Below the pieces are notes generated by a model that worked only from the letters and a program-made list of their open reading frames with translations, was not told the origin of the DNA and did no database searches. The position numbers and the translations under genes were made by a program. Shown in pieces: positions 31,584 to 53,001 of a DNA stretch of 64,000 nucleotides (positions are counted from its first letter, which is position 1; the number at the start of each line of letters is the position of its first letter). The stretch comes from an uncultured delta proteobacterium (GTDB lineage Bacteria; Desulfobacterota; DSM-4660; Desulfatiglandales; HGW-15). The stretch spans positions 213,040-277,039 of the forward strand of contig CAVUFY010000012.1 of the NCBI GenBank assembly GCA_963740905.1. Reading direction: 5' to 3'.

Positions 31584-31629
31584 TTCTGCCCCTCAAACTT
31601 CTGCCTAAGGCACTCCGGTTCCTCGACAA

Positions 31630-32514: not shown

Positions 32515-32578
32515 GCCAACCTCCCGATGTATCCGCAAAAGACTGCCCTCATGTCCTTCAAAGATAGAAAATTATTTT

Positions 32579-33485: not shown

Positions 33486-33508
33486 GACACACCTTCTTTC
33501 TTGTAATC

Positions 33509-34750: not shown

Positions 34751-35188
34751 ATGGCACACGAAGATAAAGGGCACTTCAGTCTGAAGCATTCCCCTGATCG
34801 AAAAATCAATGAACGCGTGGCCGCGATGGTCAAGGGTAAAGTCAGGGATGGAACCATGGCCTGCGCCGTCGCCTTTGAAATAGCGGAGGGCTTGGCCCTT
34901 CCTGTGGAAGAAGTGGGGTTCACCCTCGATTTACTGGAAGTTAGCGTCGTTAAATGCCAGCTTGGCCTCTTTGGGTACGGGCCAGCCAGGAGGATTGTCA
35001 AACCGGCCGAGAGGCTTTCTCCCGGTTTAGAAAAAGCCATCCGGGAATCTCTGGTAAACAATCGCCTGCCCTGTGCCTCTGCCTGGGCTATAGCAGAGAA
35101 ACTGCGCTTGAGAAAAATGGAAGTCTCTTCCGGCTGCGAGACCCTTGGAATCAAAATCGGCTCATGCCAGTTGGGAACGTTCGAGTGA
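34751..35188 (+). CDS. Hypothetical protein with two ~55-aa internal repeats, each ending in CQLG(L/T)F
   Basis: ACAVAFEIAEGLALPVEEVGFTLDLLEVSVVKCQLGLFG and PCASAWAIAEKLRLRKMEVSSGCETLGIKIGSCQLGTFE. GAGGAG RBS upstream. Confidence 0.5.
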   Translation: MAHEDKGHFSLKHSPDRKINERVAAMVKGKVRDGTMACAVAFEIAEGLALPVEEVGFTLDLLEVSVVKCQLGLFGYGPARRIVKPAERLSPGLEKAIRESLVNNRLPCASAWAIAEKLRLRKMEVSSGCETLGIKIGSCQLGTFE

Positions 35189-35453: not shown

Positions 35454-35697
35454 CCCCAATCCCCGAGGGGGACAATAAGTTTCTTGTTGGTAGGGTTTGA
35501 GCCGCTCCGGCAGTCCCCGGTGGCCATACTTTCATGCGCAAAGTACCTCATTCAGAATAGACAAAGAGAGCCAGCCGGACTATAGTTCTCATTGGTAACT
35601 GCAAGTCTTCCTGTCTTCTTTATTCGATTGCATCTCCCCCTCCTCTGTAGCCCCCGCCTTGCCAAGCTGTCTCAACTTTTCGAATCTACCTGCGAGC

Positions 35698-36048
35698 CTA
35701 GAAGTTGAAGACCTTGGCTTCGGCGGCAAGATCGATCAGATGAGGCGCTCCATCAAGCAACATGTTGGGGAAGAATTTCGACTCGTCAACCTGACGAGCC
35801 TTGGCGCAGGGGATTCAGACCCCGATCCGGACTTCCTTTTCCACCAGGTACGGTAGATAGTCGTTTGGGCAGTCACCGGTAGCTGTCTTGATATCCAGAT
35901 TGCGGGTTTTGTCCGCCCAGCCGACGCCTCCGTCAACGAAGAAAATGTTGACCTTGTATTTTTTGGAGTGAGCGATCTTGGCGAACTGGAAGCATCTCGT
36001 CGCCGCCTCATTGTCGTCCTTGCTCAGCACAAACAAGAAATTCTCCAT
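35698..36048 (-). CDS. DsrE-like selenoprotein (116 aa; Sec encoded by TGA 35815-35817), copy 1
   Basis: MENFLFVLSKDD...KVNIFFVDGGV...EVRIGV-[TGA]-IPCAKARQVDESKFFPNMLLDGAPHLIDLAAEAKVFNF*. The frame stays open for 38 codons after the TGA, and the TGA sits where the DsrE active-site Cys (..yvC..CakaRG..) is expected. Confidence 0.75.
35782..35798 (-). other. Candidate bacterial SECIS hairpin (DsrE-like copy 1)
   Basis: mRNA CUCGUCA-GGU-UGACGAG: a perfect 7-bp stem with a GGU loop, starting 16 nt after the UGA. Confidence 0.65.
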
Positions 36049-36312
36049 GACTTCCTCCCTTGGTCTCGAATTCCTCCTATTTCCTACCCTTCCCACTTGT
36101 CATTGTCACCTTCGGCAGCTCAGGCCTCTTCCCTTGCACCCGCCTCCTCTAATCCCAAGAGTTTTGTGAAAAGCAAAGATCTTATCAGGGTCAAGAATTC
36201 CGACCATAATCTGATCCGGATCCGGAGTTTCGCTGAGGAAGAAAATCGTAGAGCCTTCTCTTCCCCTCTTGGAAAAGAGCCAAGGGCACAAGCTTGAGGT
36301 TTACATTGTTTT

Positions 36313-36329
36313 GCAGTCGCCCCGACTGC
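36313..36329 (-). other. Conserved 17-nt hairpin 11 nt after the TGA of the MoaD-like gene (SECIS-like), copy 1
   Basis: mRNA GCAGUCG-GGG-CGACUGC. It is followed by AAAAC, not a U-tract, and there is no U-tract on the other strand either. Confidence 0.6.
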
Positions 36330-36340
36330 ATGCCTCAAGC

Positions 36341-36622
36341 TCACCCTACGGTCATCAGATGGAGTGTGTCACCATCATTCAGAGCGGCATCCATTCGATT
36401 TTCGTAGGACAGGACCGAGAAATTGACCGCCACTCGCAATCCCATGTCAATCGCTCCATTCTGATCCAGCAGGACCTGATCCACCCCACGACCGTATTTC
36501 CTTGCCATTCCGACGGCAAAATCTCTGATCGTACGGCCCGGAAACTCAAAATCAAGGGCCTTTTTCTTGTTCAGAATCTTGTAGAGCTGCGGCAGACCTT
36601 CAATCTTGAGATGGATTTTCAC
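36341..36622 (-). CDS. MoaD/ThiS-like beta-grasp protein ending ...LMTVG-TGA-GCT-TGA, copy 1
   Basis: (M)KIHLKIEGLPQLYKIL..LDFEFPGRTIRDFAVGMARKYG...LLDQNG...VAVNFSVL....MDAALNDGDTLHLMTVG. AAAGGAGG RBS lies 7 nt upstream of the GTG at 36622. A single Gly stands where MoaD/ThiS proteins end in GG. Confidence 0.7.
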   Translation of the reverse strand: MKIHLKIEGLPQLYKILNKKKALDFEFPGRTIRDFAVGMARKYGRGVDQVLLDQNGAIDMGLRVAVNFSVLSYENRMDAALNDGDTLHLMTVG

Positions 36623-36733
36623 TCGTAGACCTCCTTTCACACGGGTTACAAGGACACGCTCGCTTCCCTCAATAATCCACGGTCGGGAAGAGCCTCCTGT
36701 CCGTGAGCGGCAGAAACATGATTTTATGAATTC

Positions 36734-36982
36734 TCAATCCCAGGGCCGGACCAACCGCTTTCCATCCCTCAGCTCACCCTTCACTTTTTCCATATGGCGC
36801 AGCGAGGCGAGTTCACGCTCGATGTCCTCCTTTTTTGATTGAAGGAGTTCGGAGAGTTTACCTGGTTCAACGGGACCTTGCGGGCATTGCTCATTTTTCT
36901 CCTTTGACTTGACAAGAGAACCCTTCTTCCACTCGCTCATCCCACCAACCGGCGTCTGGCGGTCACTCTTCCCCGGTACCAA
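36734..36982 (-). pseudogene. Truncated copy of the Zn-ribbon/wHTH gene (C-terminal wHTH part only)
   Basis: ...GPVEPGKLSELLQSKKEDIERELASLRHMEKVKGELRDGKRLVRPWD matches the C-terminus of 44404-44766. The N-terminal 35 aa are unrelated and the Zn ribbon is missing. Confidence 0.45.
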
Positions 36983-37835
36983 AATTTATGAGGTTTGAAA
37001 CCTTTTCTTCCAAAACCTTAACCTCTTCGAGGATGATCTCGATGTACTTTGCATTAGGATCATTTTCGTTCGATTTCTCATGGAGCCTCCGGGCAAAGCC
37101 CCCGACGACTGTAAGGGAATTCCTGACTTCATGGGCTATTCTTCTTGACATTTCGCCTAATGTGGCAAGCCTTTCGGCCTCTAAGAGCTGCTGAGTTTTT
37201 GCTTCCAATTCTGCAGTTCTTTCTCGTACCTTTTGTTCGAGGTCTTGATTCAATTTGGAGATTTCCTCATACAGTGATGAAATCCTTATCGCGATGCCAA
37301 TCTGGTTCGATATGACATAGATCACGTCATTGAAGCGCTCGTGGAAGTAATTCTTTCTCTTGGAAGACGTCACCAAAACCCCAATCGTTTCTCCTTCAAC
37401 TTTTATAGGCGTAACCGCAAAAGACTTGATACCCTCGCAGACGATGCGATTCGTTGAGATGGGTTTGTCAGTTTGTTCAGCATCGTTGACAATGACGATT
37501 CTGCCCGTAAGAAAACAGTCCCCCGAGAAGCTATCAATAGTGGGTTTTCTTGTCGTTTGTTCTACGAATGCTTTGCTCAAGCCCTTCTGACTTTTGATTC
37601 TTAGGTTGCCATCGCTGTCCAGCAAACGGATGGAACAGGCATCTAGGTTGAACTCGTCTACAAGCAGATTAATAATGGCATCAAGGACAAGCTGGACATC
37701 GAGAAGAGATGAAACATACCTCGTAATCTCATAGAGGATTCTGATCTTCTGTTCAGCCTCTCTAGTTCGTCTGGAGATCGGATCCATTTCCAGGGTGACC
37801 TTCTCTTTTCCCTTCAAAGAAGTATTCAAAGCCAA
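36963..37835 (-). CDS. GAF + HisKA-like dimerisation domain protein lacking an ATPase domain
   Basis: GAF-like region (...LDACSIRLLDSDGNLRI...FLTGRIVIVNDA...), a coiled coil and an H-box-like RIAHEVRNSLTVVGGFARRL. The ORF ends ~40 aa later with no N/G boxes. Confidence 0.7.
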   Translation of the reverse strand: MALNTSLKGKEKVTLEMDPISRRTREAEQKIRILYEITRYVSSLLDVQLVLDAIINLLVDEFNLDACSIRLLDSDGNLRIKSQKGLSKAFVEQTTRKPTIDSFSGDCFLTGRIVIVNDAEQTDKPISTNRIVCEGIKSFAVTPIKVEGETIGVLVTSSKRKNYFHERFNDVIYVISNQIGIAIRISSLYEEISKLNQDLEQKVRERTAELEAKTQQLLEAERLATLGEMSRRIAHEVRNSLTVVGGFARRLHEKSNENDPNAKYIEIILEEVKVLEEKVSNLINFGTGEE

Positions 37836-39021: not shown

Positions 39022-39336
39022 TCAACAACCCGATCCAACTCCTCCCCCCGCTTTCCCTCCGCCCTTCCTGAGGCGAATAAGATAATGATCGATTTCATCC
39101 CGTATGCACATCACTTCGCAGGAACAGATCCCTAAGATCTTCAAGAACTCTCTGCGGGTATCTGGATCCGAACCGATGATCTCCATGATTTCTCCGACTC
39201 TAATCTTCCTGAACTTCTGGGCGATTTTCAGCAAGGTAAGAGGAATGATCATTCCTCTCAGATCAAGAATGTTTTCCACTGCTGGTTCCAATAGAGAACT
39301 TGTTTTCTCGCCTTTTTCCCCGTCTCTTCTGATCAT
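39022..39336 (-). CDS. TusA/SirA-like protein lacking the conserved Cys (start uncertain)
   Basis: ILDLRGMIIPLTLLKIAQKFRKIRVGEIMEIIGSDPDTRREF resembles TusA LD.RG..CP.P.L. However, Cys-Pro is replaced by Ile-Pro. Confidence 0.45.
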   Translation of the reverse strand: MIRRDGEKGEKTSSLLEPAVENILDLRGMIIPLTLLKIAQKFRKIRVGEIMEIIGSDPDTRREFLKILGICSCEVMCIRDEIDHYLIRLRKGGGKAGGGVGSGC

Positions 39337-39362
39337 ACTTGGTATAGGTGGAAGACCGGAAA

Positions 39363-39560
39363 TCACCTTCCTCCTGTTGGAAAGGCCATTTCGTCGCACC
39401 TCCAGCATCCCTGCTTCCTGAGATCTTTATGGGGGTTGATATTCTTGTCGCAGAGCCACGTGCATCCACTGTCATCCTTGAAGAATTTCAATGGACGGGC
39501 CGCCATGTGGCCGCAAAGCTCAGTGTAGTCATCCACTCTTGCTTCGTTCCTGTTTTCCAT
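39363..39560 (-). CDS. Small Cys-rich hypothetical protein
   Basis: 65 aa with a GGAGG RBS 6 nt upstream. The Cys pattern is C-x16-C-x3-C-x14-C-x2-C. Confidence 0.4.
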   Translation of the reverse strand: MENRNEARVDDYTELCGHMAARPLKFFKDDSGCTWLCDKNINPHKDLRKQGCWRCDEMAFPTGGR

Positions 39561-39578: not shown

Positions 39579-40359
39579 GAATGACTATGATCATCTTTCC
39601 CTGTTAAGATTTCTGAGCAGGATGTGTGCCAAAAGAGGAGTTCTAGGCTATCCTGCGGCAAATGCGAGGAAATTGGTTCTTATCGTGGGAAGCACAGGAT
39701 TTCTTGTTTGTTCCAGGCAGGAGGTTATGTTAAGATATGTTAACACTTGTTAAGTTAAGGGAAGGGCCATGCTTGAACAAGAATTGAACAGCTATTGGAA
39801 GACGGTAGTGGACACGATCCAGGACGGTTTGATGGTTGTGGATCGGGGAGGGATGATTGTCTCCGACAATCAAGCGCGAAATCATCACGGGCTACTCAAG
39901 GAAAGACCTGTTAGGGAAGCCCTGCTCGGCTCTGAACTGCGATGTTTGCGAAATCGCCCGGGACAGACAAGGAGAACACTGGTGCGCTTTGTTCAGGACC
40001 GGGAGTCTTAAAATGCGCCGGTGTAAAGTGCTGAGGAAGGACGGGGAAAGTATTCATGTCCTGAAGAACGCCTCACTGCTTCGTGATTCCGAAGGAGAAG
40101 TCATCGGTGCCGTGGAAACCTTGACCGACTCCAGCCCTACCATCTTCCTCCCACGATGTTCCGCGTCCAGGAACAGGCCATAAAGCCTCGACGTCTCATC
40201 GTAGACGCAACCGAAGTCCAGAAAAGGGAGCCCGTCGATGTCTTGGAAAAGTCAGGTGGAAACCAGTCCGAAGCGGCTCGTTTGCTTGGCGTGTCCAGAG
40301 TTACGGTTTGGAACCGGATGAAAAAATTCAACCTCGATCTGCGACGAACCGTGGGTTAG
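39579..40359 (+). pseudogene. Degenerate sigma54-activator relic: PAS + Fis-HTH with no AAA+ domain and broken frames
   Basis: PAS-like MLEQELNSYWKTVVDTIQDGLMVVDRGGMIVS / (frame change near 39860-39875) / EIITGYSRKDLLGKPCSALNCDVCE...GEVIGAVETLTD. About 20 codons later, in another frame, comes ...GNQSEAARLLGVSRVTVWNRMKKFNL. Confidence 0.55.
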
Positions 40360-40634
40360 GAAGAGCCGGAGGGCACGCCCATATTGGATCGGGCACAATA
40401 TCTGATATCTACGCAATTCCTCGCGCCCTTTGGAGCGCCTGTGTAACCGGTCGAAATGATCTCGTCATGATTGATGATGACGGCTCCGTAATTTCTTCGG
40501 AGGCACGTTCCCCGGCGTGACACCTCCAAGGCAATGTTCACATCGTAATCATCCTTGCCGATTCTCTCTGCGAATCCTGGCGCTTCCGAGCAAACACCCG
40601 GCCTCGCCTGTGAAGATCTTCTCGAAGAACGCAC
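40356..40634 (-). pseudogene. dCMP/cytidine deaminase-like N-terminal fragment
   Basis: ...ALEVSRRGTCLRRNYGAVIINHDEIISTGYTGAPKG..NC... resembles the ComEB/dCMP deaminase N-terminus. It ends before the HAE/PCxxC zinc motifs, abutting the relic at 40359. Confidence 0.5.
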
Positions 40635-40644
40635 CTTCTTGTCC

Positions 40645-41670
40645 TCAACCTCCTATACTATTCATAGAGCGAACGCATTTCCGTGGACCATATATATCCA
40701 AACCATGGTTTGCGGGTTTATTGAAGATCACGTTCGTGATGAGTTCAAGCAAATGCGAATTCTCTTTTCCTTGCCTTAGAGGTGTTTTGATATCTGTTTC
40801 CTGCTCGGAGAAAAGACACCCTCTCAAGTGGCCGTCCGCCGTCAACCGAAGGCGGTTGCATTTCTCGCAAAAATGGTGACTTAGAGCACCGATCAGCCCG
40901 ATCTCCCCTTTGGCATCTTTCAGGGCGTACCGCTGAGCGGGGCCGTCCAGTGGCTTGGAATCCAGGGGCGTGATGGGTCCCAGGCGCCGAATCATGCTAA
41001 GGATTTCCTTGATAGAGACAAACCTCTCAGCGGTCCAGGAATTTTTTACGCCCACAGGCATCATTTCGATAAAGCGGACATGATAGGGTTTTCTGAACGT
41101 GAGGCATGCAAAATCCAGGATCTCGTCGTCATTCATACCCCTCATTGCAACCATGTTGATCTTGATGGGTTGCAGCCCCGCAGATTCCGCTGCTTCAATT
41201 CCTTCCCAGACCCGTTCAAAATAGTCTCGCCCGGTAATCTGGTAGAATCTTTCCGGCCTTAGCGTGTCCATGCTCACGTTAACTCGGCAGATTCCACATT
41301 CCCGGAGGGGACGGGCAAAGTCCTTGAGAAGAACGCCGTTGGTGGTCAAGCTGATTTCTTCCAGTCCATCGATGTCACAAAGCCTCTCGATAAAGGGGAT
41401 AATGCCTTTTCTAACCAGCGGCTCGCCGCCTGTAAGCCTTACCTTTCGGATACCGTGCAGGACGCTAAGGCTTACCACGCGAAGCATTTCTTCATAGGTC
41501 AAAATTTCATTGTGGGGTACGAATTCGACACCTTCTTCAGGCATGCAGTAGATACACCTCAGATTGCAACGATCGGTCACGGAAAGACGCAGGTAGTTAA
41601 TTATTCGGTGGTTGTTATCCACAAAATCGGTCTTCGTGCTCAACGCGAGCGGTGATTTCAGCTTCTGCAT
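40645..41670 (-). CDS. moaA: GTP 3',8-cyclase MoaA
   Basis: YLRLSVTDRCNLRCIYCMPEEG...RLTGGEPLVR...C-terminal ...CEKCNRLRLTADGHLRGCLF. Confidence 0.92.
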   Translation of the reverse strand: MQKLKSPLALSTKTDFVDNNHRIINYLRLSVTDRCNLRCIYCMPEEGVEFVPHNEILTYEEMLRVVSLSVLHGIRKVRLTGGEPLVRKGIIPFIERLCDIDGLEEISLTTNGVLLKDFARPLRECGICRVNVSMDTLRPERFYQITGRDYFERVWEGIEAAESAGLQPIKINMVAMRGMNDDEILDFACLTFRKPYHVRFIEMMPVGVKNSWTAERFVSIKEILSMIRRLGPITPLDSKPLDGPAQRYALKDAKGEIGLIGALSHHFCEKCNRLRLTADGHLRGCLFSEQETDIKTPLRQGKENSHLLELITNVIFNKPANHGLDIYGPRKCVRSMNSIGG

Positions 41671-42512: not shown

Positions 42513-43307
42513 TTACATCCCGAAAAGGCCTAAAATAAACATCATCACAAAGGATATTGCAATTGAGAGACCAAAACAGGAGAGATTTCTGACGAAAGCA
42601 AACTTCCAGCCCAGGGCTGCGCTTTCAGCGGGAAACTGGATAAGACCGACGGTAACCCAAGAGCAGATAAAGGCGGTCACGGCCACAAGGCTTACACCCC
42701 GTTCGAGCATTTGTCCGCCGATAATGTAGCTGTTGATAGGGTTGCCGGCAAATAAACTTCCTATGCACGCGCCACAGAGAGAGTCCCGCCACATACTTCC
42801 AGAGAAGAAAGGGGTTAGAGAGTCTTTCGATACGAATGCGTTGAAAAGACCCACCAAAAAGATTACTCCGGTCATAATAGGCAACATGTTTTTGATCTGA
42901 TTGAAGGCACTTCGAAACGCCAGGACAACATCCTTTTGGTCTATCTTCCATGCCGTCAAGCCCAAACTCTCGATCTCTTCTATTTGCCTTTTCCTGTTTT
43001 CTTTTTCAAATTTATCGAGGACTTCCTCTACCGTACCGCCAATGCCCGTCACGACTTTAACACCATGGGCAGAAAGATACCTCTCCGCAATGGGGCTGCA
43101 CCAGTCTGTAAGCACAACGTTGCTCTTCTTCGCTATAATCAGGGCAACCACATGCATCCCGGCTCCGCTCCCGGAGCCTCTTGGACTCCGAAGAGCTTCA
43201 AAGTCCTTGGATTCAAGATCTACAACAAGCAAATAGGGTGACAGCCCCAGCCTGTCGCCCACTCTTGCGGTGAAATCCGGACCTTCTGCTGGAATGGCAA
43301 CCTTCAA
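42513..43307 (-). CDS. NifX/NifB-like domain fused to a permease half
   Basis: (TTG start) MKVAIPAEGPDFTARVGDRLGLSPYLLVVDLES...VVALIIAKKSNVVLTDWCSPIAERYLSAHGVKVVTGIGGTVEEVL, followed by TM helices. Confidence 0.65.
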   Translation of the reverse strand: MKVAIPAEGPDFTARVGDRLGLSPYLLVVDLESKDFEALRSPRGSGSGAGMHVVALIIAKKSNVVLTDWCSPIAERYLSAHGVKVVTGIGGTVEEVLDKFEKENRKRQIEEIESLGLTAWKIDQKDVVLAFRSAFNQIKNMLPIMTGVIFLVGLFNAFVSKDSLTPFFSGSMWRDSLCGACIGSLFAGNPINSYIIGGQMLERGVSLVAVTAFICSWVTVGLIQFPAESAALGWKFAFVRNLSCFGLSIAISFVMMFILGLFGM

Positions 43308-43411
43308 GGCGCCTGCCCTCCTGGATATCCCCTCCCATCGAAATCCCCGTCCAACCTGAGATGAAGGTTATCGGAATTTTGGTGCAAGGTGATTCTGAAA
43401 TTCGTAGCCAT
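43304..43411 (-). pseudogene. Truncated paralog of the STAS-like gene
   Basis: MATNFRITLHQNSDNLHLRLDGDFDG then out-of-family sequence and a stop. It matches the first 26 aa of 33201-33485. Confidence 0.4.
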
Positions 43412-43466
43412 GATATGCCTCCTTTCTGCTCAGAGCTGTCTCAACTTTTCGAATCTACCTGCGAGC

Positions 43467-43817
43467 CTAGAAGTTGAAGACCTTGGCTTCGGAGGCAAGA
43501 TCGATCAGATGAGGCGCTCCATCAAGCAACATGTTGGGGAAGAATTTCGACTCGTCAACCTGACGAGCCTTGGCGCAGGGGATTCAGACCCCGATCCGGA
43601 CTTCCTTTTCCACCAGGTACGGTAGATAGTCGTTTGGGCAGTCACCGGTAGCTGTCTTGATATCCAGATTGCGGGTTTTGTCCGCCCAGCCGACGCCTCC
43701 GTCAACGAAGAAAATGTTGACCTTGTATTTTTTGGAGTGAGCGATCTTGGCGAACTGGAAGCATCTCGTCGCCGCCTCATTGTCGTCCTTGCTCAGCACA
43801 AACAAGAAATTCTCCAT
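43467..43817 (-). CDS. DsrE-like selenoprotein (Sec encoded by TGA 43584-43586), copy 2
   Basis: Same protein as copy 1. The ORF-track entry 43584-43817 stops at the in-frame TGA, and the frame stays open to TAG 43467-43469. Confidence 0.75.
43551..43567 (-). other. Candidate SECIS hairpin (DsrE-like copy 2)
   Basis: Identical CUCGUCA-GGU-UGACGAG. Confidence 0.65.
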
Positions 43818-43982
43818 GACTTCCTCCCCTATTCTCCAATTCCTCCTTCCTCCTACCCGTCCTCACTTCTCATTTCCACCTTCGGCAGCCCATGCCTCTT
43901 CCCTTGCAACCGTCTGTTTCCTCCCCGATCTTCTCCTCTTGGAAAAGAGCCGAGGGCGTAAGGTTGATGTTTACTTTGTTTT

Positions 43983-43999
43983 GCAGTCGCCCCGACTGC
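43983..43999 (-). other. Conserved post-TGA hairpin of the MoaD-like gene, copy 2
   Basis: GCAGUCG-GGG-CGACUGC, 11 nt after TGA 44011-44013. Confidence 0.6.
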
Positions 44000-44010
44000 A
44001 TGCCTCAAGC

Positions 44011-44292
44011 TCACCCTACGGTCATCAGATGGAGTGTGTCACCATCATTCAGAGCGGCATCCATTCGATTTTCGTAGGACAGGACCGAGAAATTGACCGC
44101 CACTCGCAATCCCATGTCAATCGCTCCATTCTGATCCAGCAGGACCTGATCCACCCCACGACCGTATTTCCTTGCCATTCCGACGGCAAAATCTCTGATC
44201 GTACGGCCCGGAAACTCAAAATCAAGGGCCTTTTTCTTGTTCAGAATCTTGTAGAGCTGCGGCAGACCTTCAATCTTGAGATGGATTTTCAC
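44011..44292 (-). CDS. MoaD/ThiS-like beta-grasp protein, copy 2
   Basis: Protein identical to copy 1, with the same RBS and the same TGA-GCT-TGA ending. Confidence 0.7.
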   Translation of the reverse strand: MKIHLKIEGLPQLYKILNKKKALDFEFPGRTIRDFAVGMARKYGRGVDQVLLDQNGAIDMGLRVAVNFSVLSYENRMDAALNDGDTLHLMTVG

Positions 44293-44403
44293 TCGTAGAC
44301 CTCCTTTCACACGGGTTACAAGGACACGCTCGCTTCCCTCAATAATCCACGGTCGGGAAGAGCCTCCTGTCCGTGAGCGGCAGAAACATGATTTTATGAA
44401 TTC

Positions 44404-44766
44404 TCAATCCCAGGGCCGGACCAACCGCTTTCCTTCCCTCAGCTCACCCCTCACTTTTTCCATATGGCGCAGCGAGGCGAGTTCACGCTCGATGTCCTCC
44501 TTTTTTGATTGAAGGAGTTCGGAGAGTTTACCTGGTTCAATGGGCCCTTGCATGTGGAGCAATTCAAGGATCTCCTTTTGAAGCTTGTTGAGTTGCGGTT
44601 CATCCTCCTGTTCTTTCAAGAACGTCTTTGCGCTATACACCGCCCACGGATCACAACCTTTTACCGGGGAAAGGAGGTCCATGTAACAATCTTCACAAAG
44701 AATCAGCCCGTGAAGTTCTTTTTCTTCCCCCTCGATGATAACGACGTTACATCTCTGACATTGCAT
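44404..44766 (-). CDS. Zn-ribbon + winged-helix protein (full-length copy)
   Basis: MQCQRCNVV...LILCEDCYMDLLSPVKGCDPWAV (CxxC...CxxC) followed by ...LNKLQKEILELLHMQGPIEPGKLSELLQSKKEDIERELASLRHMEKVRGE (wHTH-like). Confidence 0.55.
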   Translation of the reverse strand: MQCQRCNVVIIEGEEKELHGLILCEDCYMDLLSPVKGCDPWAVYSAKTFLKEQEDEPQLNKLQKEILELLHMQGPIEPGKLSELLQSKKEDIERELASLRHMEKVRGELREGKRLVRPWD

Positions 44767-44997
44767 AATGAATTCTCTTAAACATTTGATTTGCACCTAT
44801 GCCGACCTGGCAAATCCCTAATGCCTGACACGTCAGGTGGGACAAGACGTCCTGCCCATAGGCGGATCCGTCCGTACCACTGGCTATCCATTTCAGAAAC
44901 CTCTGCAGCAACCCGAGGTTCTCAGGTTTTTGTCGGAACGAAGTTACGGCCGGAGGGGAGGAAACCTGACTCAAACCGCTTTCATTTCCGATTCTAG

Positions 44998-45363
44998 TTA
45001 CATTCCTGCGCGGCACATGGTAGCGATCCTTTGATAAAGCCGCAACACGATGGCTCCCCGAGGGCATTCCTCGGCGCATCTTCCGCAGCCGATGCAGCGA
45101 GATGCACGCACCAGAGCAGTGTTTTTGATTGCAATGGCCCCGACCGGACAGACAGTCTCGCATACGCCGCAGCCAAGACACCTTTCTGAATCGATAACGG
45201 CGACGTACAAAGGGAGTCCTGGCTTTTGTTGGATCTCACTGATACGCCGGCTTAACGTATCGAGGCGTGCTCCTATCGCTTGAGCCCTTTGTTTCAGTAA
45301 CAGGAGTTCCTCTCGCTGGCCGTCCGTCACTTTTTCCGCCCCGCTCGCATCTCGCCCTTTCAC
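44998..45363 (-). CDS. Coiled-coil + 2x[4Fe-4S] ferredoxin-domain protein
   Basis: The GTG start overlaps the upstream stop (GTGA). ...REELLLLKQRAQAIGARLDTLSRRISEIQQ then CLGCGVCETVCP and CIGCGRCAEECP. Confidence 0.65.
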   Translation of the reverse strand: MKGRDASGAEKVTDGQREELLLLKQRAQAIGARLDTLSRRISEIQQKPGLPLYVAVIDSERCLGCGVCETVCPVGAIAIKNTALVRASRCIGCGRCAEECPRGAIVLRLYQRIATMCRAGM

Positions 45364-45601
45364 TCCCTTGTCATGGCCGTTCCACACTTGGGACATTTCT
45401 GTTCGTAACAGGGGCTCCCCATCTGATGGGTTGCTCTTTCCCCGCAGTTCGGGCAAACGCAATATCCGCCCGGGCCGGCGCCAAAACCACCTCCTCGCCC
45501 TTTCCCCACTTCCTCCTTGGCCCCGGCCGCCGCCTCTTCCCCATACCTCTGCCTGTTCCCGGTCCCTGGCCTCTCGGGCCTGTTCCGTCTCCTCTCGGCA
45601 T
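45360..45601 (-). pseudogene. DUF5320-like Gly-rich + Zn-ribbon protein, frame broken twice
   Basis: MPRGDGTGPRGQGPGTGRGMG (frame A), RGGGRGQGGSGE (frame +1), then GRGGGFGAGPGGYCVCPNCGERATHQMGSPCYEQKCPKCGTAMTRE* (frame +2). Both shifts fall in G/A runs within 45493-45545. Confidence 0.55.
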
Positions 45602-45656
45602 TTTGCTTACCTCCTTTCGAATTGATTTAACGGAAAACCTCCGATCGTTTTATATG

Positions 45657-46518
45657 TCAAGACCTTGTGCCAGATCTTCGCCAGATCTTTTTGACTGCCC
45701 CGGCGGCCTCGGAATGGCCGTCATATTCAAAAATGGTCTTCCCCTGGACCATTGCCTTTGTAAAGACTGGATCAAATGGGATTCGACCCATCACCCTTAT
45801 CTGCTTTCTCCCGGGCAAAGTCTTCTATGGCCCGTCCCTGGTCGGGATTGAGATCGAATTTGTTGACGCAGACTATGGCCGGGACCTTGAAAAAGGCAGC
45901 CAGTTCGGCTACGCGCTCCATGTCGTGCCTGCCCGAAACCGTGGGCTCTGCCACGATGAGGACCGCCGTTGCCCCGCCAAGGGAAGCGATCACCGGACAC
46001 CCAATGCCTGGAGGGCCGTCTGTGAGCAGCAAATCCAGGTTCTTTTCTTCCGCAAGCTTCTTGCCTTGCTGCCGGATAAGGGTCACGAGTTTGCCCGAGT
46101 TTTCTTCCGCAATGCCCAGCCTTGCGTGGGCCATGGGGCCGAAGCGGGTGTCGGAAATGAACCATTCCCCGCATGTGTTCAGGGGAAAATCAATCGCTTC
46201 TTCAGGGCAGAAATAGTGACACACACCACAGCCCTCGCAGGCGATGGGGTCCACCACAAAATCTTCGCTGATGGCGTTCCACCTGCACAAATCTCGGCAA
46301 CGACCACATTGGGTGCATTTGTCCTGATTGATTACGGCCATATGACCGGACTGAAAATCATGGCGCTCCATGATCCGTGGGTCCATGATCAGATGAAGAT
46401 CCGCCGCATCCACATCCGCATCACAAAGCACCTTGCCCTTTGCCAGGGAAGCGAAGGCGGCCAATATGCTTGTCTTCCCTGTCCCTCCCTTGCCGCTTAT
46501 GACAACCAGTTCCTTCAT
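45657..46518 (-). pseudogene. MinD/ParA-like P-loop ATPase with a 4Fe-4S ferredoxin insert, C-terminal frameshift
   Basis: ISGKGGTGKTS, two Cys clusters (CTQCGRCRDLC; CEGCGVCHYFCP) and DGPPGIGCPVI. After ...EDFAREK the homology continues in the +1 frame as QIRVMGRIPFDPVFTKAMVQGKTIFEYDG... (shift window 45797-45817). Confidence 0.7.
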
Positions 46519-46561
46519 CCAAATCTACCCCGCCTTACCTTTCATGTTTATAAGACTCCAT

Positions 46562-47403
46562 CTATTGAGCAATAATTTCTTCAATTCGATGGAATAAATC
46601 CTGGAATTTCTGCTTCCACTCGGGCATCACCTCGACGAGCATCTCCCCCTTCGAGTAGGACTCCGCGATTTTACGATCAAAAGGGATCTCCATCAGGATG
46701 GGCATCCCCTCGCTCTCTGCATATGTCCCTCACCTGATCATCGCCCATATCCGAGCGATTGATGACTAGCCCGCAGGGAATCCCGAGAATATTCACGGCC
46801 CCCACAGCCAGCTTGAGGTCATGGAGGCCGAAAGGGGTGGGTTCTGTAACCAGCAAGACGAAATCCGCTCCTTTCATGGAGGCGATCACTGGACATGAAG
46901 TCCCGGGAGGGGCATCAATGATGGTCAACAACCCCGGTCGTGTATATTCTCGGACTTTTCTGAATAAGAGGAGGGGACATGGCCTCTCCGACCCTTAACC
47001 TGCCGTGCACGAATTCCAGGCCGTCCCTGTGCCCGATCTGGATGACACCCAGTTCACGCCCCACCTCGGTAATGGCCCCATCGGGGCACACCTCCATGCA
47101 TCCGCCGCAACTGTGGCAGAGCTCGTGGAACGGCAAAACGGTCTCACCAATGACCACAATCGCCTTGAACTGGCAGATCTCATTGCACTTCCCGCAGAGG
47201 GTGCATTTTTCCATATCCACTTCGGGCACAGGGGTGGTTATGGTCTTAACCCCTTCAATCGCAGGCTGGATAAAGAGATGGGCGTTGGGTTCTTCTACAT
47301 CGCAGTCCAGGAGCTGCACGCCGGATTCAAGTGATACGGCCAGATTGGTGGCCACGGTCGTCTTTCCCGTTCCTCCTTTTCCGCTCGCTATGCTGATAAT
47401 CAT
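46562..47403 (-). pseudogene. Second MinD/ParA-like Fe-S ATPase, two frameshifts
   Basis: IASGKGGTGKTT, CTLCGKCNEIC, CHSCGGCMEVCP. The frame changes at the A4 run 46956-46959 (...PPLIQK / VREYTRPGLLTIIDAPPGTSCPVI...) and at the G4 run 46706-46709 (...ICRERG / MPILMEIPFDRKIAESYSKGE...IIAQ*). Confidence 0.7.
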
Positions 47404-47433
47404 CCGTCGCTCCTCATCGTCTTGATGCGTGTC

Positions 47434-47904
47434 TCATTTTTCGGGTCGTGTTCCCGGTTCGAGATTATCTTTTCTAAGCTGTTTCCTCATATAGTCGTCG
47501 AGGGCTTCCTGGAGCGTTTCCGCAGCGAGAAAGGCGCAGTGCCGATCCTCCTTGGGCAGACCGCCAAGAACATCGAGGATCATTTCGCCCGTAATCTCCG
47601 CAATCTCGTCGGAACTCCTGCCGTGGGCAAGCTCGGCTGCGAAAGAACCGCAAACCGTGCTGGAGCCACATCCATCAGTTTGAAATGTCGCCTCTTTCAC
47701 CCTGTCCTTTTCGAATCTCAAAAAAATCTCCATCGTGTCGCCGCATGTCCCCTTGACACGGCCGTACCCTTCCGGATTGGGAATCACTCCGATGTACAGA
47801 GGCTTAAGCCATCTTTCGAAAGCTACCTGCCCGTATGTCTCCCTTGTCTCTTCATAGATCTGATCCTGTAACGCCCTGGCAAATTCATCGAGTTCGTCAG
47901 CCAT
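47434..47904 (-). CDS. IscU/NifU-N-like Fe-S scaffold protein
   Basis: KGTCGDTMEIFL...QTDGCGSSTVCG...EDRHCAFLAAETLQEAL. Confidence 0.8.
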   Translation of the reverse strand: MADELDEFARALQDQIYEETRETYGQVAFERWLKPLYIGVIPNPEGYGRVKGTCGDTMEIFLRFEKDRVKEATFQTDGCGSSTVCGSFAAELAHGRSSDEIAEITGEMILDVLGGLPKEDRHCAFLAAETLQEALDDYMRKQLRKDNLEPGTRPEK

Positions 47905-47921
47905 TGCGCATTCCTCGTTCT

Positions 47922-48495
47922 CTATTTATCCTCAATTTCTCTGAGTCTTGATTCGATCGATTCCATTTGCTTTCGCATTTCGTCAGCCTGTTGTCTGAGA
48001 CGGGCAATTTCTTCCTTTCGGGATGGGAGATCCGGCTCCGGATTGATCGGCACTCCTGCCGCCGGTCATGCCTCTCCCGCGGCCTATTCCCCCGCCCATG
48101 CCGCGGCCCATCCCGCGGCCCATCCCGAAATGGCTCTGTACACTGGGGGCTGTTGTGGGGGAAAGCTCCCCTGCCTTGAATCGCTCAACCGCCTTCCGGA
48201 CCTGGCCCGTTATTCCGGTTAGCACCTGAATTCCGGCGGCTCCAAAGGTTTGAAAGGCATTGGGGCCGCAGTTCCCGGTCAGCACAACCGAAACGCCTTT
48301 GCTTGCCATGAGCTGGGCCGACTGAATGCCGGCGCCGCCCCCCAGCGCGATGTTCGGATTCTCTATGGGTTCGAAATCCAAACCGTCCGGATCGATGATT
48401 AAAAAGTATGCACATCGTCCAAACCGTGATTCCACTGTGTCTTCGAGTGTGGGTCCGGTAGAAGTCACAGCGATTTTCATCCTATTCTTCGACAT
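47922..48495 (-). pseudogene. NifX/NifB-like domain + Gly/Met-rich linker + DUF5320-like coiled coil, one frameshift
   Basis: MKIAVTSTGPTLEDTVESRFGRCAYFLIID...VVLTGNCGPNAFQTFGAAGIQV..., then GMGRGMGRGMGGG. After ...GAGSPI the +1 frame reads RKEEIARLRQQADEMRKQMESIESRLREIEDK* (shift window 48018-48030). Confidence 0.65.
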
Positions 48496-48642
48496 AGTTT
48501 CTTTCTCCTGTTTTAGTTTTTTCTTCTTTGACGATAAGATCTCTGTTCCGTCCGAACTGACGCGAGGTTAATCAGCCGGCTGAAAGGCGTCTCTTCCTTC
48601 GGATCGTTTCTTGATTCCTCCTCACTAAGCGCTCAGGAAACT

Positions 48643-49635
48643 TCAAACGCAGAAACGGCATCCTTTTTTAACATTATTCACACGCGGGTATGAGCCTATC
48701 CCTTCTCTGATTGCGGCGACAAAGTAAATGGAACCACTTGAGCGTTCAGTGTGGATTTGTCCTTGCCGCAGGAGGTTGCCAAGGTATTTAGACACCTCGT
48801 TGAGATGCATACCGAAGGCACCCGCAATCTCCTCCGCCGTGCAGGGCCGCCTGTTTAGCATGGAAATGATCGCCTCCCGATTGGCTCGGATTTCAAAACC
48901 GCCTTTATCCTTGTACTCTGCAATCACTTCCGCCGGGGGTCGAAATAGATGACACAGGGAGGCTAAGCGCTCGCTGGAAAGGGGTGCAACAAAATCCTCT
49001 GCGGGAGGGCGAACAGCCGTATTCAAATGAATCCGATCCGGTTTGAGCAGATCCGCCAGCGCAGCAATCTTTGCCACATCGGAAGGAATCGAGTTCATAC
49101 CCGCAACAAGGAACACTTCTATCCACATCTCTCCTTTGAACTCATTGCGGAAGGCCTTTTGCCCCTCAATCAACCGCTTGAAATCGAGATCCGGATGCGG
49201 ACGGTTCACCCATCCGTAAGACGCCTGGTCCCACGCGCTCAGAGAAATCTTGACGATATGGGCTTGCAAGGCTTGCCTGCGGACTTCCGGCAGATAAAAG
49301 AGAGAGCCATTTGTCAGCAAAACCGCTTTTATAACGCTATTCTTTCTGACAAACCCGAGCACCTCCCCAAAGCAGGAATGAAGCGTTGGTTCTCCGGAAC
49401 CGGAAAGGGTGATATGATCCGCCTTTCCACCCCTTTTCAACCAGTTCCCGAGCTCATCGAGCACTTCCCCAACAGGCACATATTCCCGCCTGGTGACCGT
49501 CTTGCTTGGGGTTGGTCCAAGCTGGCAAAAGACGCAATCCTGGCTGCATGTCTTATAAGGCGTTACATCCACTCCCAGAGACCGTCCCAGTCGACGTGAC
49601 GGAACAGGTCCGAATATATATTTGTATTCTCCCAT
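48643..49635 (-). CDS. Radical SAM protein with a C-terminal winged-helix-like domain
   Basis: PSRRLGRSLGVDVTPYKTCSQDCVFCQLG (CxxxCxxC)...ITLSGSGEPTL. The C-terminus is ...EEIAGAFGMHLNEVSKYLGNLLRQGQI. Confidence 0.8.
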   Translation of the reverse strand: MGEYKYIFGPVPSRRLGRSLGVDVTPYKTCSQDCVFCQLGPTPSKTVTRREYVPVGEVLDELGNWLKRGGKADHITLSGSGEPTLHSCFGEVLGFVRKNSVIKAVLLTNGSLFYLPEVRRQALQAHIVKISLSAWDQASYGWVNRPHPDLDFKRLIEGQKAFRNEFKGEMWIEVFLVAGMNSIPSDVAKIAALADLLKPDRIHLNTAVRPPAEDFVAPLSSERLASLCHLFRPPAEVIAEYKDKGGFEIRANREAIISMLNRRPCTAEEIAGAFGMHLNEVSKYLGNLLRQGQIHTERSSGSIYFVAAIREGIGSYPRVNNVKKGCRFCV

Positions 49636-49659
49636 TGGCTAACTGGTCTTCCTTTCGAT

Positions 49660-50001
49660 TCAACAGTGGGGGCATCCTGTCATTATAAATCTTGGGCCTC
49701 TCAGGGAACCGTTCAGATAAGCATCCAACACTTGATCTGCTTGTCCGCAGATGAACGGGATCAACCGAATCCCATAGCCTTCCACGAGACTGACGAAGAA
49801 ATCCGAGATAGCGCCGCAGATAAAAATCTTTGCCTCGAGGTGAGCGAGCCTTCTGGCGCGGTAGAACACGGACTCTGTGTTAAGAGAGTCAGTACGCCGG
49901 CACCGAATGGCTCGATCTTCAACATCCACGACAAGCAACTGCCTGGCCGAGTCTGCAACAGGAGAAATCCGGTCTTCCCAGACGGTCAGGACCACTTTCA
50001 T
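49660..50001 (-). CDS. NifX/NifB-like small protein (paralog of 31060-31422)
   Basis: MKVVLTVWEDRISPVADSARQLLVVD...FICGAISDFFVSLVEGYGIRLIPFICGQADQVLDAY. Confidence 0.65.
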   Translation of the reverse strand: MKVVLTVWEDRISPVADSARQLLVVDVEDRAIRCRRTDSLNTESVFYRARRLAHLEAKIFICGAISDFFVSLVEGYGIRLIPFICGQADQVLDAYLNGSLRGPRFIMTGCPHC

Positions 50002-50259: not shown

Positions 50260-50276
50260 GCAGTCGTCCCGACTGC
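50260..50276 (-). other. Conserved post-TGA hairpin of the MoaD-like gene, copy 3
   Basis: mRNA GCAGUCG-GGA-CGACUGC, again exactly 11 nt after TGA 50288-50290. Confidence 0.6.
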
Positions 50277-51020: not shown

Positions 51021-51638
51021 TTATTCCGGCTCACTTGGTTCATCATAATGAAGGAGACGCTCCCGCCTGATCGAGTACGCCAGGAATTCTGAGCAGTAGT
51101 CACAAAAGGCGAGAGATGCCCTATCCAGGTCAGCAAGGTTTCCCGAGTAGTGCATCAGGCACTGTGTGTTCAGGCAATGGGCCATATTGAAGAGGTGGCC
51201 CAACTCATGAATGGCCACCTTGACCAGTCTCTCGACGATTTGATCGAAAGAAACGGGAAGCCTATCTGTGGCCTTGCCCAGTCTGTAGAGGGAGGCAAGA
51301 GCATACCTGCCCCCCTCATTGGCTTCTCCCAGAACATGGGTGAAGATAGGAATGAAAAGATCCACGTCCATCACGCAGATCACTTTATCCATCTCCTCAT
51401 CAAAGGGCATGGAATTTAAAGCCTTGAGGATAATCGCAGCATTGTACTGTCCCCGCTTTTGATCGTAGGCGTAGGCGGGGTTTTGAAAAGGAGAAAGAAT
51501 ATGGGCCTCCAGATTGAGGTGGGTTTGGATATAGGTCGCGACACCATCCAGCGCCGCGTCAGAGACCTCACCAAAGGGTGCCACACCGATGCATATTTTT
51601 TTCAGATTCATAAGGGAAGGGGATTCCAAAAGGGTCAT
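51021..51638 (-). CDS. amzA: Archaemetzincin (peptidase M54)
   Basis: HELGHLFNMAHCLNTQCLMHYSGNLADLD......CDYC. Confidence 0.8.
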   Translation of the reverse strand: MTLLESPSLMNLKKICIGVAPFGEVSDAALDGVATYIQTHLNLEAHILSPFQNPAYAYDQKRGQYNAAIILKALNSMPFDEEMDKVICVMDVDLFIPIFTHVLGEANEGGRYALASLYRLGKATDRLPVSFDQIVERLVKVAIHELGHLFNMAHCLNTQCLMHYSGNLADLDRASLAFCDYCSEFLAYSIRRERLLHYDEPSEPE

Positions 51639-51654: not shown

Positions 51655-53001
51655 TCAAAGAGGTCTTTTCAGTTGATAGCGATTGATCATCTTGTGAAGG
51701 GACACCCGGTTAACCCCTAAAATTTTGGCCGATTCCGTGATATTCCAGTCCTGCTCTTCAAGAATTTCTTGAATATAATCCTTTTCCATCTCCTTAAGGG
51801 TTCGCCCTTTCCTGAATTGGATAGGAGAAGGTCGGAGGAAAGAGAAGTCCTCTACCCCAAGAGTCCTGGATTTGGAAAGCACCACCGCGCGTTCGATAGC
51901 GTTCTCGAGTTCCCTCACATTTCCGGGCCAGCCGTAACTCTTCAGGAATTCAATGGCCTCAGTGGCCACTCGGTCTACCAGCTTGGTGGTCTCATGACTG
52001 TACTTGTTCAGGAAGTGCTTGACCAGAAGCAGAATATCTTCCTTCCTTTTTCTCAGAGGAGGCATGTGCAGTGTGATCACATTAATCCTATACAATAGGT
52101 CTTCCCTGAACCGACCCGCGGCAACTTCCTCATCCAAGTCTCGTCTGGTCGAAGATAACAGTCTGAAATCCACATCGATCGGCTCTCTATCGCCGATTCT
52201 TATGATCTTTTTCTCTTCCAGGACCCGCAAGAGATCCACTTGCATTCTGGGGCTGATCTCTCCAATCTCGTCAAGGAAAAGCGTCCCCCCGGAGGCCACC
52301 TCGATGAATCCTTTCCGAGCTCGATTCGCCCCGGTAAAGGCACCTTTTTGGTGGCCGAAGAGTTCACTCTCCAGGAGGGCCTCGGGCAGGGCGCCGCAGT
52401 TCATTGCGATAAAAGGGCCTTTGGATCGGAAGCTCTCGGCATGGATGGCCTTGGCCACCAACTCCTTACCGGTTCCCGTTTCTCCTGAGATGAGCACGGA
52501 TGATTCACTCTGGGCAACCTGCGGTATGAGCTCGAATATGGCCGTCATGGGCGGTGACTGGCCGATCATGTTATCAAATCGCGTGACCTCTTCCAAAAGC
52601 CCCTTGACATAGTGATATTCGGACGTCAGCTTTCGTTCACGGGCAATTTTCTCGAGGACCAGCGCCAGTTGATCAGGCTTGAAGGGTTTCAGCAAGTAGT
52701 CGCTCGCTCCCAGCTTCATTGCTTCAATGGATGATTCGATGGAACCATATGCGGTAATGATGATGACGACGGTGTCCGGATATCCCTCCTTAACGTGTTT
52801 CAAAAGTTTCAAACCGTTCATGCGGGGCATTTTCATATCCACGAACAGGACTTCAAAGGGTTTTTTCTCCAGGATAGCCAGTGCCTCATCGCCGCCGGAG
52901 GCAGCTTCCACCATGTGGCCGGCTTTTTTGAACCAGTGGTAAAGGGATTCCCGTACGATCAATTCGTCATCCACGACCATGATTCTCAATCTCTCATCCA
53001 T
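51655..53001 (-). CDS. NtrC-type response regulator (REC - sigma54 AAA+ - Fis HTH)
   Basis: IMVVDDE...VLFVDMKMPRMNG, GETGTGKE, a canonical GAFTGA loop, and ...SAKILGVNRVSLHKMINRY. Confidence 0.92.
   Translation of the reverse strand: MDERLRIMVVDDELIVRESLYHWFKKAGHMVEAASGGDEALAILEKKPFEVLFVDMKMPRMNGLKLLKHVKEGYPDTVVIIITAYGSIESSIEAMKLGASDYLLKPFKPDQLALVLEKIARERKLTSEYHYVKGLLEEVTRFDNMIGQSPPMTAIFELIPQVAQSESSVLISGETGTGKELVAKAIHAESFRSKGPFIAMNCGALPEALLESELFGHQKGAFTGANRARKGFIEVASGGTLFLDEIGEISPRMQVDLLRVLEEKKIIRIGDREPIDVDFRLLSSTRRDLDEEVAAGRFREDLLYRINVITLHMPPLRKRKEDILLLVKHFLNKYSHETTKLVDRVATEAIEFLKSYGWPGNVRELENAIERAVVLSKSRTLGVEDFSFLRPSPIQFRKGRTLKEMEKDYIQEILEEQDWNITESAKILGVNRVSLHKMINRYQLKRPL

Follow-up and report, generated by a model that had tools for sequence, protein, structure and literature searches.

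We analysed a stretch of 64,000 nucleotides (the window) from an uncultured delta proteobacterium (contig CAVUFY010000012.1, positions 213,040 to 277,039) that carries three small genes with putative roles in regulation and in sulfur or selenium chemistry. We refer to them as A (Zn-ribbon/winged-helix), B (MoaD-like) and C (DsrE-like); all are on the minus strand. The subject of this work is chiefly gene B, whose product appears to be a carrier-type protein with selenocysteine in its C-terminal tail.

Gene content of the locus

Gene A (44766-44404), delimited from the open reading frames (ORFs) and the sequence, encodes a putative regulator of 120 amino acids. Gene B starts with GTG at 44292, with an AGGAGG ribosome-binding site ahead of the start, and extends to 44005. 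Its product is a β-grasp protein resembling MoaD and ThiS. The gene ends GGG TGA GCT TGA, in which we read the first TGA (44013-44011) as a selenocysteine (Sec) codon, GCT (44010-44008) as alanine and the second TGA (44007-44005) as the true stop, giving the tail ...MTVG-Sec-Ala. A hairpin of 17 nt resembling a selenocysteine insertion sequence (SECIS) element (GCAGUCG-GGG-CGACUGC, 43983-43999, minus strand) starts 11 nt past the UGA, in the 3' untranslated region. Gene C (43817-43467) encodes a DsrE-like protein of 116 amino acids with the motif U78-I-P-C81, the predicted Sec codon being at 43586-43584. Folding of the RNA gave a second SECIS-like hairpin here (43549-43569, minus strand), with a stem of 9 bp and a GGU loop, which starts 14 nt past the UGA. 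An initial annotation, made from the sequence alone, had placed the three genes at these coordinates, and each was recovered from the ORFs and the sequence.

B and C are both present more than once in the window. B copy 2 (36622-36335, minus strand; Sec codon 36343-36341, hairpin 36329-36313) and C copy 2 (36048-35698, minus strand; Sec codon 35817-35815) belong to a duplicate of the whole unit, described below. B copy 3 (50569-50282, minus strand) stands apart from both units and agrees with the third MoaD-like gene of the initial annotation. It shares 90% amino-acid identity with copy 1 and 88.7% DNA identity across 363 nt (blastn), ends GGG TGA GCC TGA with its Sec codon at 50290-50288, and is followed by a SECIS-like hairpin (GCAGUCG-GGA-CGACUGC, 50260-50276, minus strand). 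A sigma54-type -24/-12 element (TGGCATATGGATTGCT, 50779-50764, minus strand), a perfect match to TGGCAY-N5-TTGCW, lies 195 nt upstream of its ATG.

Evidence for a selenocysteine tail in B

A homologue search with B returned 76 proteins of about 93-94 amino acids, all of them annotated in the databases as ending ...MTVG. DNA from about 60 loci provided 57 distinct 3' ends of the gene, and 56 of these have the form GGN TGA (GGN or GCN) stop. Codon and hairpin statistics were calculated from 38 aligned sequences. The first stop in these is always TGA, while the second is variable (TGA in 32, TAA in five and TAG in one). The codon between the two stops occurs in seven synonymous forms encoding glycine or alanine (GGC, GGG, GGT, GGA, GCT, GCC and GCG), and within the window it differs by a synonymous change, being GCT in B copies 1 and 2 and GCC in copy 3. 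The exception among the 57 ends (L068, 763-1056) reads GGC TGT TGA GGG TAG, which would encode Gly-Cys-Sec-Gly, and the usual hairpin then follows. This GCUG tail is the same tetrapeptide as that of the redox tail of mammalian thioredoxin reductase.

A hairpin with the consensus GCAGUC-loop-GACUGC is found 3' of the UGA in every case. Across the 38 sequences, 97.8% of the cells in the stem are paired, as opposed to 12-42% when the partners are slid by one to three columns, and compensatory double changes are seen in 16 cells, distributed over three of the six pairs. The stem starts 11 nt past the UGA in 21 of the 38 sequences (range 10-16 nt), 11 nt being the classical requirement of the E. 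coli fdhF SECIS, and the loops hold GG or GU. The fold of the hairpin of copy 1 has a z-score of -2.9. SECIS elements can also function from a position past the stop codon, recombinant thioredoxin reductase being an example. An intrinsic terminator was considered for this hairpin and rejected, as it has no U-tract and was not called by a terminator scan. An Rfam scan of the window at gathering thresholds returned no family, the SECIS models included.

The host evidently decodes Sec elsewhere, since gene C and two HdrA-like genes (54665-57685 and 58712-62350, both minus strand) also have candidate Sec codons. Both HdrA-like genes carry, within ...TNDCAM-U-I(I/L)SPK, a TGA in frame at CAM-U, the known HdrA selenocysteine site. 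No tRNA, and thus no selC, was visible in an ARAGORN scan of the window.

From the UGA-(Gly/Ala)-stop pattern and the hairpin with its compensatory changes we read the tail as Gly-Sec-Gly in most homologues and Gly-Sec-Ala in the window. On these sequence grounds B is very probably a selenoprotein with the tail ...Met-Thr-Val-Gly-Sec-Ala. The protein has no cysteine, and Sec would be its sole chalcogen residue; cysteine is present in only one member of the family, and no close Cys form of B was found. That the UGA is instead a plain stop, and B a MoaD paralogue that is truncated or degenerate, has one terminal glycine and is followed by a stability or termination element, is hard to credit. 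Gene callers do end all 76 database entries at ...MTVG, and matches to the ThiS and MoaD hidden Markov models (HMMs) of Pfam and NCBIfam are below their cut-offs. A plain stop accords poorly, however, with an invariant first stop ahead of a variable second one, with a following codon that is limited to Gly or Ala, varies synonymously and always has the second stop next to it, and with a hairpin that combines SECIS-like spacing, G-rich loops and covariation with the lack of a U-tract. Nor does it accord with two variants, GCUG in L068 and GGCC in a distant relative (P0211, described below), that place a chalcogen at the same spot. The initial annotation had interpreted the UGAs of both B and C as selenocysteine, which the codon pattern, the hairpins and the alignment with cysteine make very probable.

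The family appears to be undescribed. It has no matching model in NCBIfam release 20 and is absent from Haft's 2022 preprint. The table of prokaryotic selenoprotein families in a 2026 review (PMC13188914) includes MoeB and several C-terminal "star" families and has nothing with PF02597, MoaD or ThiS. Full-text literature searches combining selenoprotein with MoaD, sulfur carrier, β-grasp or orange protein likewise gave nothing relevant to B. We could not find the family in searchable libraries or literature, an absence that is not proof of novelty. It does reveal a gap in annotation, in that all 76 database entries stop short at the UGA and B is missing from the 2026 selenoprotein catalogue. 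Among known selenoproteins, B has most in common in its layout with those having C-terminal Sec, such as thioredoxin reductase and the "UXX-star" and "KCU-star" families (PMC13188914): the Sec is 1-3 residues from the end and the SECIS lies past the stop. The folds of these proteins are unrelated to that of B, and the NCBIfam models of the "star" families do not match it.

Fold and relatives of B

The AlphaFold model of B, made from the family alignment, has a predicted local distance difference test score (pLDDT) of 93.6. In a Foldseek search of the PDB it matched SAMP1, CysO and Urm1 with template modelling (TM) scores of 0.73-0.77 and MoaD with 0.66-0.68, at a probability of 1.00 in all cases, and the MoaD-like identity first assigned to B is borne out by this fold. 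The sequence scores are below the family thresholds, at 16.8 bits for PF02597 (cut-off 22.5) and 21.2 bits for TIGR01687 (cut-off 49.5).

In the classical carriers with this fold, an E1 enzyme installs a thiocarboxylate on a Gly-Gly tail. B shares with MoaD, ThiS, CysO, SAMP and Urm1 the fold, the size of about 90 amino acids, a flexible tail that follows the last strand at the C-terminus and weak HMM similarity, but differs from them in scoring below the cut-offs and in having a Gly-Sec-Gly/Ala tail in place of Gly-Gly. It also differs in its genetic context, which is that of orange protein (ORP), NifU and DUF364 genes rather than the molybdenum cofactor, thiamin or cysteine biosynthesis of the MoaD, ThiS and CysO carriers. 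The initial annotation had remarked on the lack of an E1 in the window, and we found no ThiF/MoeB-type match either among the window ORFs scanned or among the recurrent neighbour clusters of B. A MoaE or ThiG partner was not found in these two sets either.

With SAMP1 and Urm1 as its best structural matches, B might be a ubiquitin-like modifier of their type, its tail becoming conjugated to target proteins and Sec tuning the chemistry. PMC9574740 describes Urm1 conjugation as coupled to persulfidation chemistry. We consider this role highly improbable, as E1, JAMM protease and other conjugation genes were found neither in the window nor among the recurrent neighbours of B, and the terminal alanine in the window is unlike known modifiers.

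A profile search of 1.8 billion representatives yielded 220 distant relatives of B. Many of these have 95 amino acids, are 37-45% identical to B and end ...AGG or ...GGG, and from its sequence B looks like a Sec-bearing offshoot of this Gly-Gly-tailed carrier clade. One relative of 96 amino acids (P0211) ends ...MVGGCC, and its penultimate Cys is at the Sec position, counted from the shared DGD motif. Other distant relatives end GAS, APS or TPS, and might likewise be cut at UGA. The B family proper is rare, occurring in Thermodesulfobacteriota/Deltaproteobacteria and Syntrophorhabdus metagenome-assembled genomes (MAGs). A scan of the GTDB species genomes located it only in MAGs labelled Deltaproteobacteria, Thermodesulfobacteriota, Desulfobacterales, Desulfobacteraceae, Desulfobacula or Syntrophorhabdus, and in no Desulfovibrio.

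Genomic context of B

We clustered the neighbouring genes of 61 B loci, and used window proteins as probes in 23 non-redundant loci flanked by 8 kb or more. A NifU_N/IscU-type scaffold gene is immediately upstream of B in 17 of the 61 loci, and DUF364 and MBL-fold genes are near B in 16 and 11 of them. Other recurrent neighbours encode a 330-aa radical SAM protein, DUF134-NifX proteins, MinD/ParA-ferredoxins and P-loop-NifX fusions resembling MrpORP. Four loci (L004, L014, L058 and L065) have a whole operon with B as the last gene. In the first three of these the order is a sigma54 enhancer-binding protein (EBP) or DUF134-NifX gene, two MinD-Fer4 genes, MrpORP, MBL, DUF364, NifU_N and B. ORP-type genes (NifU_N, DUF364, MBL, radical SAM, MinD-Fer4, NifX) were found in 13 of the 23 long loci; the neighbours of B in loci without them look heterogeneous. 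Judged from these gene neighbourhoods, B is preferentially encoded in ORP/NifU/DUF364 clusters, typically as the final gene of a sigma54-controlled ORP-like operon and right behind NifU/IscU-type scaffold and DUF364 genes; this association is strong and not universal.

The ORP clusters of Desulfovibrio include the MinD-ferredoxins Orp3 and Orp4, the Mo-Cu cluster protein Orp8 and MrpORP, are under sigma54/OrpR control, and have products that bind both Fe-S clusters and a Mo-Cu-S cluster (PMC6345978). Features of theirs that recur in the window and in many B loci are MinD/ParA-ferredoxin pairs, Nitro_FeMo-Co (Di-Nase) proteins, sigma54 activators and -24/-12 elements; such pairs and Nitro_FeMo-Co proteins are found in L004, L014, L016, L058 and L065 as well as in the window. 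Fusions of P-loop and Di-Nase domains are common to the Desulfovibrio clusters and several B loci. MrpORP, which has this architecture (P-loop NTPase plus Di-Nase domain), is present in several B loci including L004, and was not identified among the window ORFs scanned. No MoaD-like selenoprotein has been reported for the Desulfovibrio clusters. The clusters linked to B add NifU_N, DUF364, MBL and a radical SAM gene. From its genome context, DUF364 has been connected with rare-metal handling (Fe, W, V, Mo) (PMC2954201), and its only characterised member cyclises a derivative of S-adenosylmethionine (PMC12930334).

Genes A, B and C had been regarded in the initial annotation as a module, an arrangement that proved not to be conserved. 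With tblastn on all B loci, we found A directly upstream of B elsewhere only in L006/L007, which represent one lineage, among 57 non-redundant loci; in L051 it is 9 kb from B. Gene C adjoins B only in L019, a close relative whose B is 91% identical to that of the window. These searches, together with views from the C side and the A side, rule out a conserved A-B-C module.

The window does contain genes of molybdenum, tungsten and selenium metabolism, as had been pointed out in the initial annotation. A yqeB gene (31711-32538, minus strand; TIGR03309, 389.2 bits, cut-off 220), a marker of the selenium-dependent molybdenum hydroxylase trait, is within about 12 kb of the unit. The moaA gene for GTP 3',8-cyclase (40645-41670, minus strand; TIGR02666, 382 bits, cut-off 284), a TusA-like gene (39022-39408, minus strand; Pfam E = 9e-8), a tungstate/molybdate (wtpABC)-type ABC transporter with ATPase/TOBE, permease and SBP_bac_11 genes (17743-20588) and a DUF4213/DUF364 gene (26957-27682) are also there. 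Two of three reported FmdE-like genes were identified (2095-2712 and 20701-21576), and phmmer with all six-frame ORFs did not find the third.

The DsrE and TusA families form sulfur relays, in which small proteins pass on a chalcogen held by a single reactive residue. This concept, the MoaD fold of B and the DsrE-family protein that adjoins it here had led to the proposal that A, B and C are a dedicated relay bringing selenium or selenium-assisted sulfur to Mo/W pterin cofactors, for instance to the labile selenium ligand of the yqeB-marked selenium-dependent molybdenum hydroxylases. We think this improbable. Neither yqeB, moaA, tusA, fmdE nor wtpA/wtpB occurs within 10 kb of B in any of the 23 long loci elsewhere, the trio is not conserved, and the orthologues of A and C are in unrelated contexts. 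Beyond the window, B has no conserved linkage to DsrE or TusA genes. MoaE, yqeC and xdh-like genes were not seen among the window ORFs scanned. The TusA-like protein of the window has Ile-Pro in place of the catalytic Cys-Pro (DLRGMIIPLT), as had been recognised earlier, and from this sequence it cannot be expected to carry a persulfide in the usual way. In addition, selenium covalently held in Sec is not labile without a lyase. Since the supporting neighbours are absent from other B loci, the link to Mo/W or labile selenium appears to be a local coincidence of the window. The gene-neighbourhood comparison called for in the initial annotation thus speaks against a pterin Mo/W target, and leaves plausible the other part of its proposal, an E1-free selenium-assisted chalcogen carrier, now in assembly of ORP-type clusters. 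It is also a caution on inference from neighbourhood, because Mo/W and selenium-cofactor surroundings that are persuasive here are not conserved in other genomes.

Proposed function of B

We tentatively propose, from the sequence comparisons above, that B assists metal-sulfur cluster assembly as a selenol-tail carrier independent of E1; this is our leading candidate, though a claim we make with some reserve. The genetically encoded selenol on the swinging tail would stand in for the thiocarboxylate of MoaD and ThiS. Its load could be sulfane sulfur (as Se-S), a thiometallate or a metal ion, which it would deliver into the active site of a partner, most likely the adjacent IscU-type scaffold, and to NifX-like cofactor-binding proteins. 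The receiving process would be the assembly of Fe-S or Mo/W-S clusters. In the lineage of the window, C with its UxxC motif might be the local chalcogen donor or reductant for B, and A might regulate the unit. A more far-reaching version, in which ribosomally inserted Sec replaces an enzyme-installed thiocarboxylate and the resulting E1-independent "selenol arm" serves IscU-type scaffolds and NifX-like proteins as a new branch of metal-sulfur cluster biogenesis in anaerobes, is more doubtful. If the carrier function is correct, there would be a second way to arm the ubiquitin-like fold, beyond E1 activation of a Gly-Gly tail, and a testable way into the ORP/NifU/DUF364 clusters that sulfate reducers and syntrophs carry and that are poorly understood.

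Several observations weigh against this proposal. Ten of the 23 long B loci (about 40%) have no ORP-type neighbour, and lack the probe families save for a DnaJ or activator match in two. Most B loci are on short metagenome contigs, many of them related, and the counts given above are not counts of independent events. No cysteine desulfurase or rhodanese is recurrent next to B. The lack of cysteine in B leaves no obvious resolving partner for the selenol within the protein, and the evidence for Cys in place of Sec comes from one distant cluster representative (P0211), known as a protein only. Finally, the function of the ORP clusters themselves is unsettled (PMC6345978).

The selenol could alternatively shuttle reducing equivalents, in the manner of the Gly-Cys-Sec-Gly tail of thioredoxin reductase. 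B would then form selenenyl-sulfide bonds with partner thiols, such as those of the UxxC motif of C or scaffold cysteines, and keep cluster-assembly proteins reduced or detoxify peroxides. The tail of L068 is exactly GCUG, and in the lineage of the window a redox-type UxxC selenoprotein, C, is encoded directly downstream. Thioredoxin, peroxiredoxin and pyridine-nucleotide disulfide reductase genes are found in some A and B loci, and PMC9312934 attributes a presumed redox role to most catalogued prokaryotic selenoproteins. We nevertheless judge a redox tail to be unlikely. With Cys absent from all family members but one there is no intramolecular redox pair, and no reductase gene is recurrent among the neighbour clusters of B. 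Both the β-grasp carrier fold and the surroundings of NifU, DUF364 and NifX genes suggest that a ligand is transferred, and not electrons. In our assessment the redox tail, the ubiquitin-like modifier, the Mo/W selenium relay and the plain stop are each less likely than a selenol-tail carrier.

The DsrE-like selenoprotein C

With its UGA read as Cys, C scores 67.8 bits against Pfam DsrE (PF02635; cut-off 22.7, E = 1.2e-18). It has more than 1,100 homologues, the best of which have 116 amino acids and are 70-80% identical to it. At the position of the Sec, the 116-aa homologues have a near-invariant Cys within G[VI]C[TIV]PCA, so that U78-x-x-C81 corresponds to C-x-x-C, and 38 conserved residues lie downstream of the UGA. 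The Sec that had been assigned to the cysteine position of this protein is supported by the alignment. A DsrE-like UxxC selenoprotein family was reported in 2005 (PMC1088965) and is in the table of the 2026 review (PMC13188914). C is an ordinary member of this family, fitting it fully in score, in the UxxC/CxxC alignment and in the hairpin after the UGA, and is unusual only in adjoining B in this lineage. In Desulforhabdus and Desulfomicrobium the Cys orthologues are encoded by stand-alone genes whose neighbourhoods are unrelated.

Two small ORFs are close to the copies of C. The first, of 35 amino acids (43304-43411, minus strand; beginning MATNFRITLHQNSDNLHLRLDGDFDG...), is just downstream of C copy 1 and is a truncated copy of the N-terminus of a 103-aa ORF (33201-33512, minus strand), which is another sign of local duplication. 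The second, of 150 amino acids (34736-35188, plus strand), is about 500 nt from C copy 2, matches no family and contains the motif ...CQLG(L/T)FGY/E twice. It has a clear homologue in another B locus (L040, 1637-2071), about 630 nt upstream of B.

The putative regulator A

A has CxxC motifs at residues 3-6 and 24-27. Among its 414 homologues C3, C6, C24 and C27 are invariant, as is C38-D-P-W. The AlphaFold model consists of a Zn-ribbon followed by a classical winged helix (helix-helix-helix-wing, residues 61-118), a domain that Foldseek matched to ArsR/SmtB, MarR and Z-alpha domains. Pfam and NCBIfam scans gave no family above cut-off, with sub-threshold noise only (DUF5805, MerR). A is probably an uncharacterised small regulator, responsive to metal or redox state. 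The neighbourhoods of its homologues are varied, some containing DUF5320, a sigma54 activator, moaA, NifU_N or DUF364, and neither B nor C was found in those examined.

Duplications in the window

The second copy of the unit (35665-36881, minus strand) was delimited with blastn, ORFs and tblastn, and consists of a fragment of A, B copy 2 and C copy 2. It aligns with the first in two blocks, 44551-43929 with 36881-36259 (98.2% identity over 623 nt) and 43915-43434 with 36145-35665 (96.5% over 482 nt). The A fragment (36881-36737) retains only residues 73-120. A duplicated unit with a truncated winged-helix gene had already been described here, in agreement with this identity of 96-98%. The 1.2-kb unit has been duplicated recently, in a region rich in other duplicated fragments.

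Many of these fragments are between the two unit copies. The segment 33868-34004 is related to 39597-39663 and 40294-40364, 34107-34406 is related to 36974-37273, and a further fragment is at 39769-40359. Short repeats in the same region bear sigma54-like elements (33902-33887 and 39631-39616), and a HisKA fragment shares 73% identity with a portion of the kinase at 36963-37835. Isolated pieces resemble remnants of sigma54 activators, one being HTH_8 by Pfam and another apparently a PAS piece. Together, the duplicated fragments suggest repeated segmental rearrangement.

Other genes of the window

An ORP-like set of genes, assigned with Pfam and NCBIfam, occupies 44998-50001 on the minus strand, between B copies 1 and 3. 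It includes genes for a ferredoxin (44998-45462), a MinD/ParA-ferredoxin (45772-46518), NifU_N (47434-47904), a NifX-like (Nitro_FeMo-Co) protein (47983-48495), a radical SAM protein (48643-49635) and a small NifX-like protein with a weaker match (49660-50001). A further MinD/ParA-ferredoxin gene resembling Orp3/Orp4 (46677-47403) is frameshifted, its ORFs 46915-47403 and 46677-46931 overlapping in different frames. The frameshift reflects either a pseudogene or an error of assembly and does not mark a Sec site. An MBL-fold gene is found at 28965-29999.

Directly downstream of C copy 1 is a gene for a NifX-like domain with a predicted permease (42513-43307, minus strand; Nitro_FeMo-Co E = 1.3e-9, weak ArsP_1), and another NifX-like gene with a weaker match is at 31060-31638. 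Of five NifX-like domains in the initial annotation we thus found four, two of them weaker. The fifth, at the C-terminus of a cation-diffusion-facilitator transporter (25649-26917, minus strand), is below threshold. This C-terminal extension looks NifX-like by eye, and in the most closely related MAGs (L008, L018, L020, L021 and L023) the transporter fusion is again near B.

A second perfect -24/-12 match (31452-31437) is upstream of the NifX-like gene at 31060-31638. In all, 11 matches to the sigma54 consensus with at most one mismatch are present in the window, where 3.98 are expected; these are consensus matches and not evidence of function. A sigma54-dependent response-regulator activator of the AtoC/NtrC/ZraR type (EBP; 51655-53001, minus strand; NCBIfam E = 1e-120 to 1e-132) adjoins a histidine kinase gene identified with Pfam (53016-54560). 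Between this activator and B copy 3 is a Peptidase_M54 (archaemetzincin-like) gene (51021-51638, minus strand), with a homologue in one other B locus (L051).

At the 5' end of the window (213-3547) there are DUF3786/"FeS" genes resembling corrinoid Fe-S proteins. A CooT nickel-chaperone-like gene (1854-2042) precedes the FmdE-like gene at 2095-2712, whose product has a DksA-type zinc finger, and a second NifU_N gene (3119-3547) is on the opposite strand.

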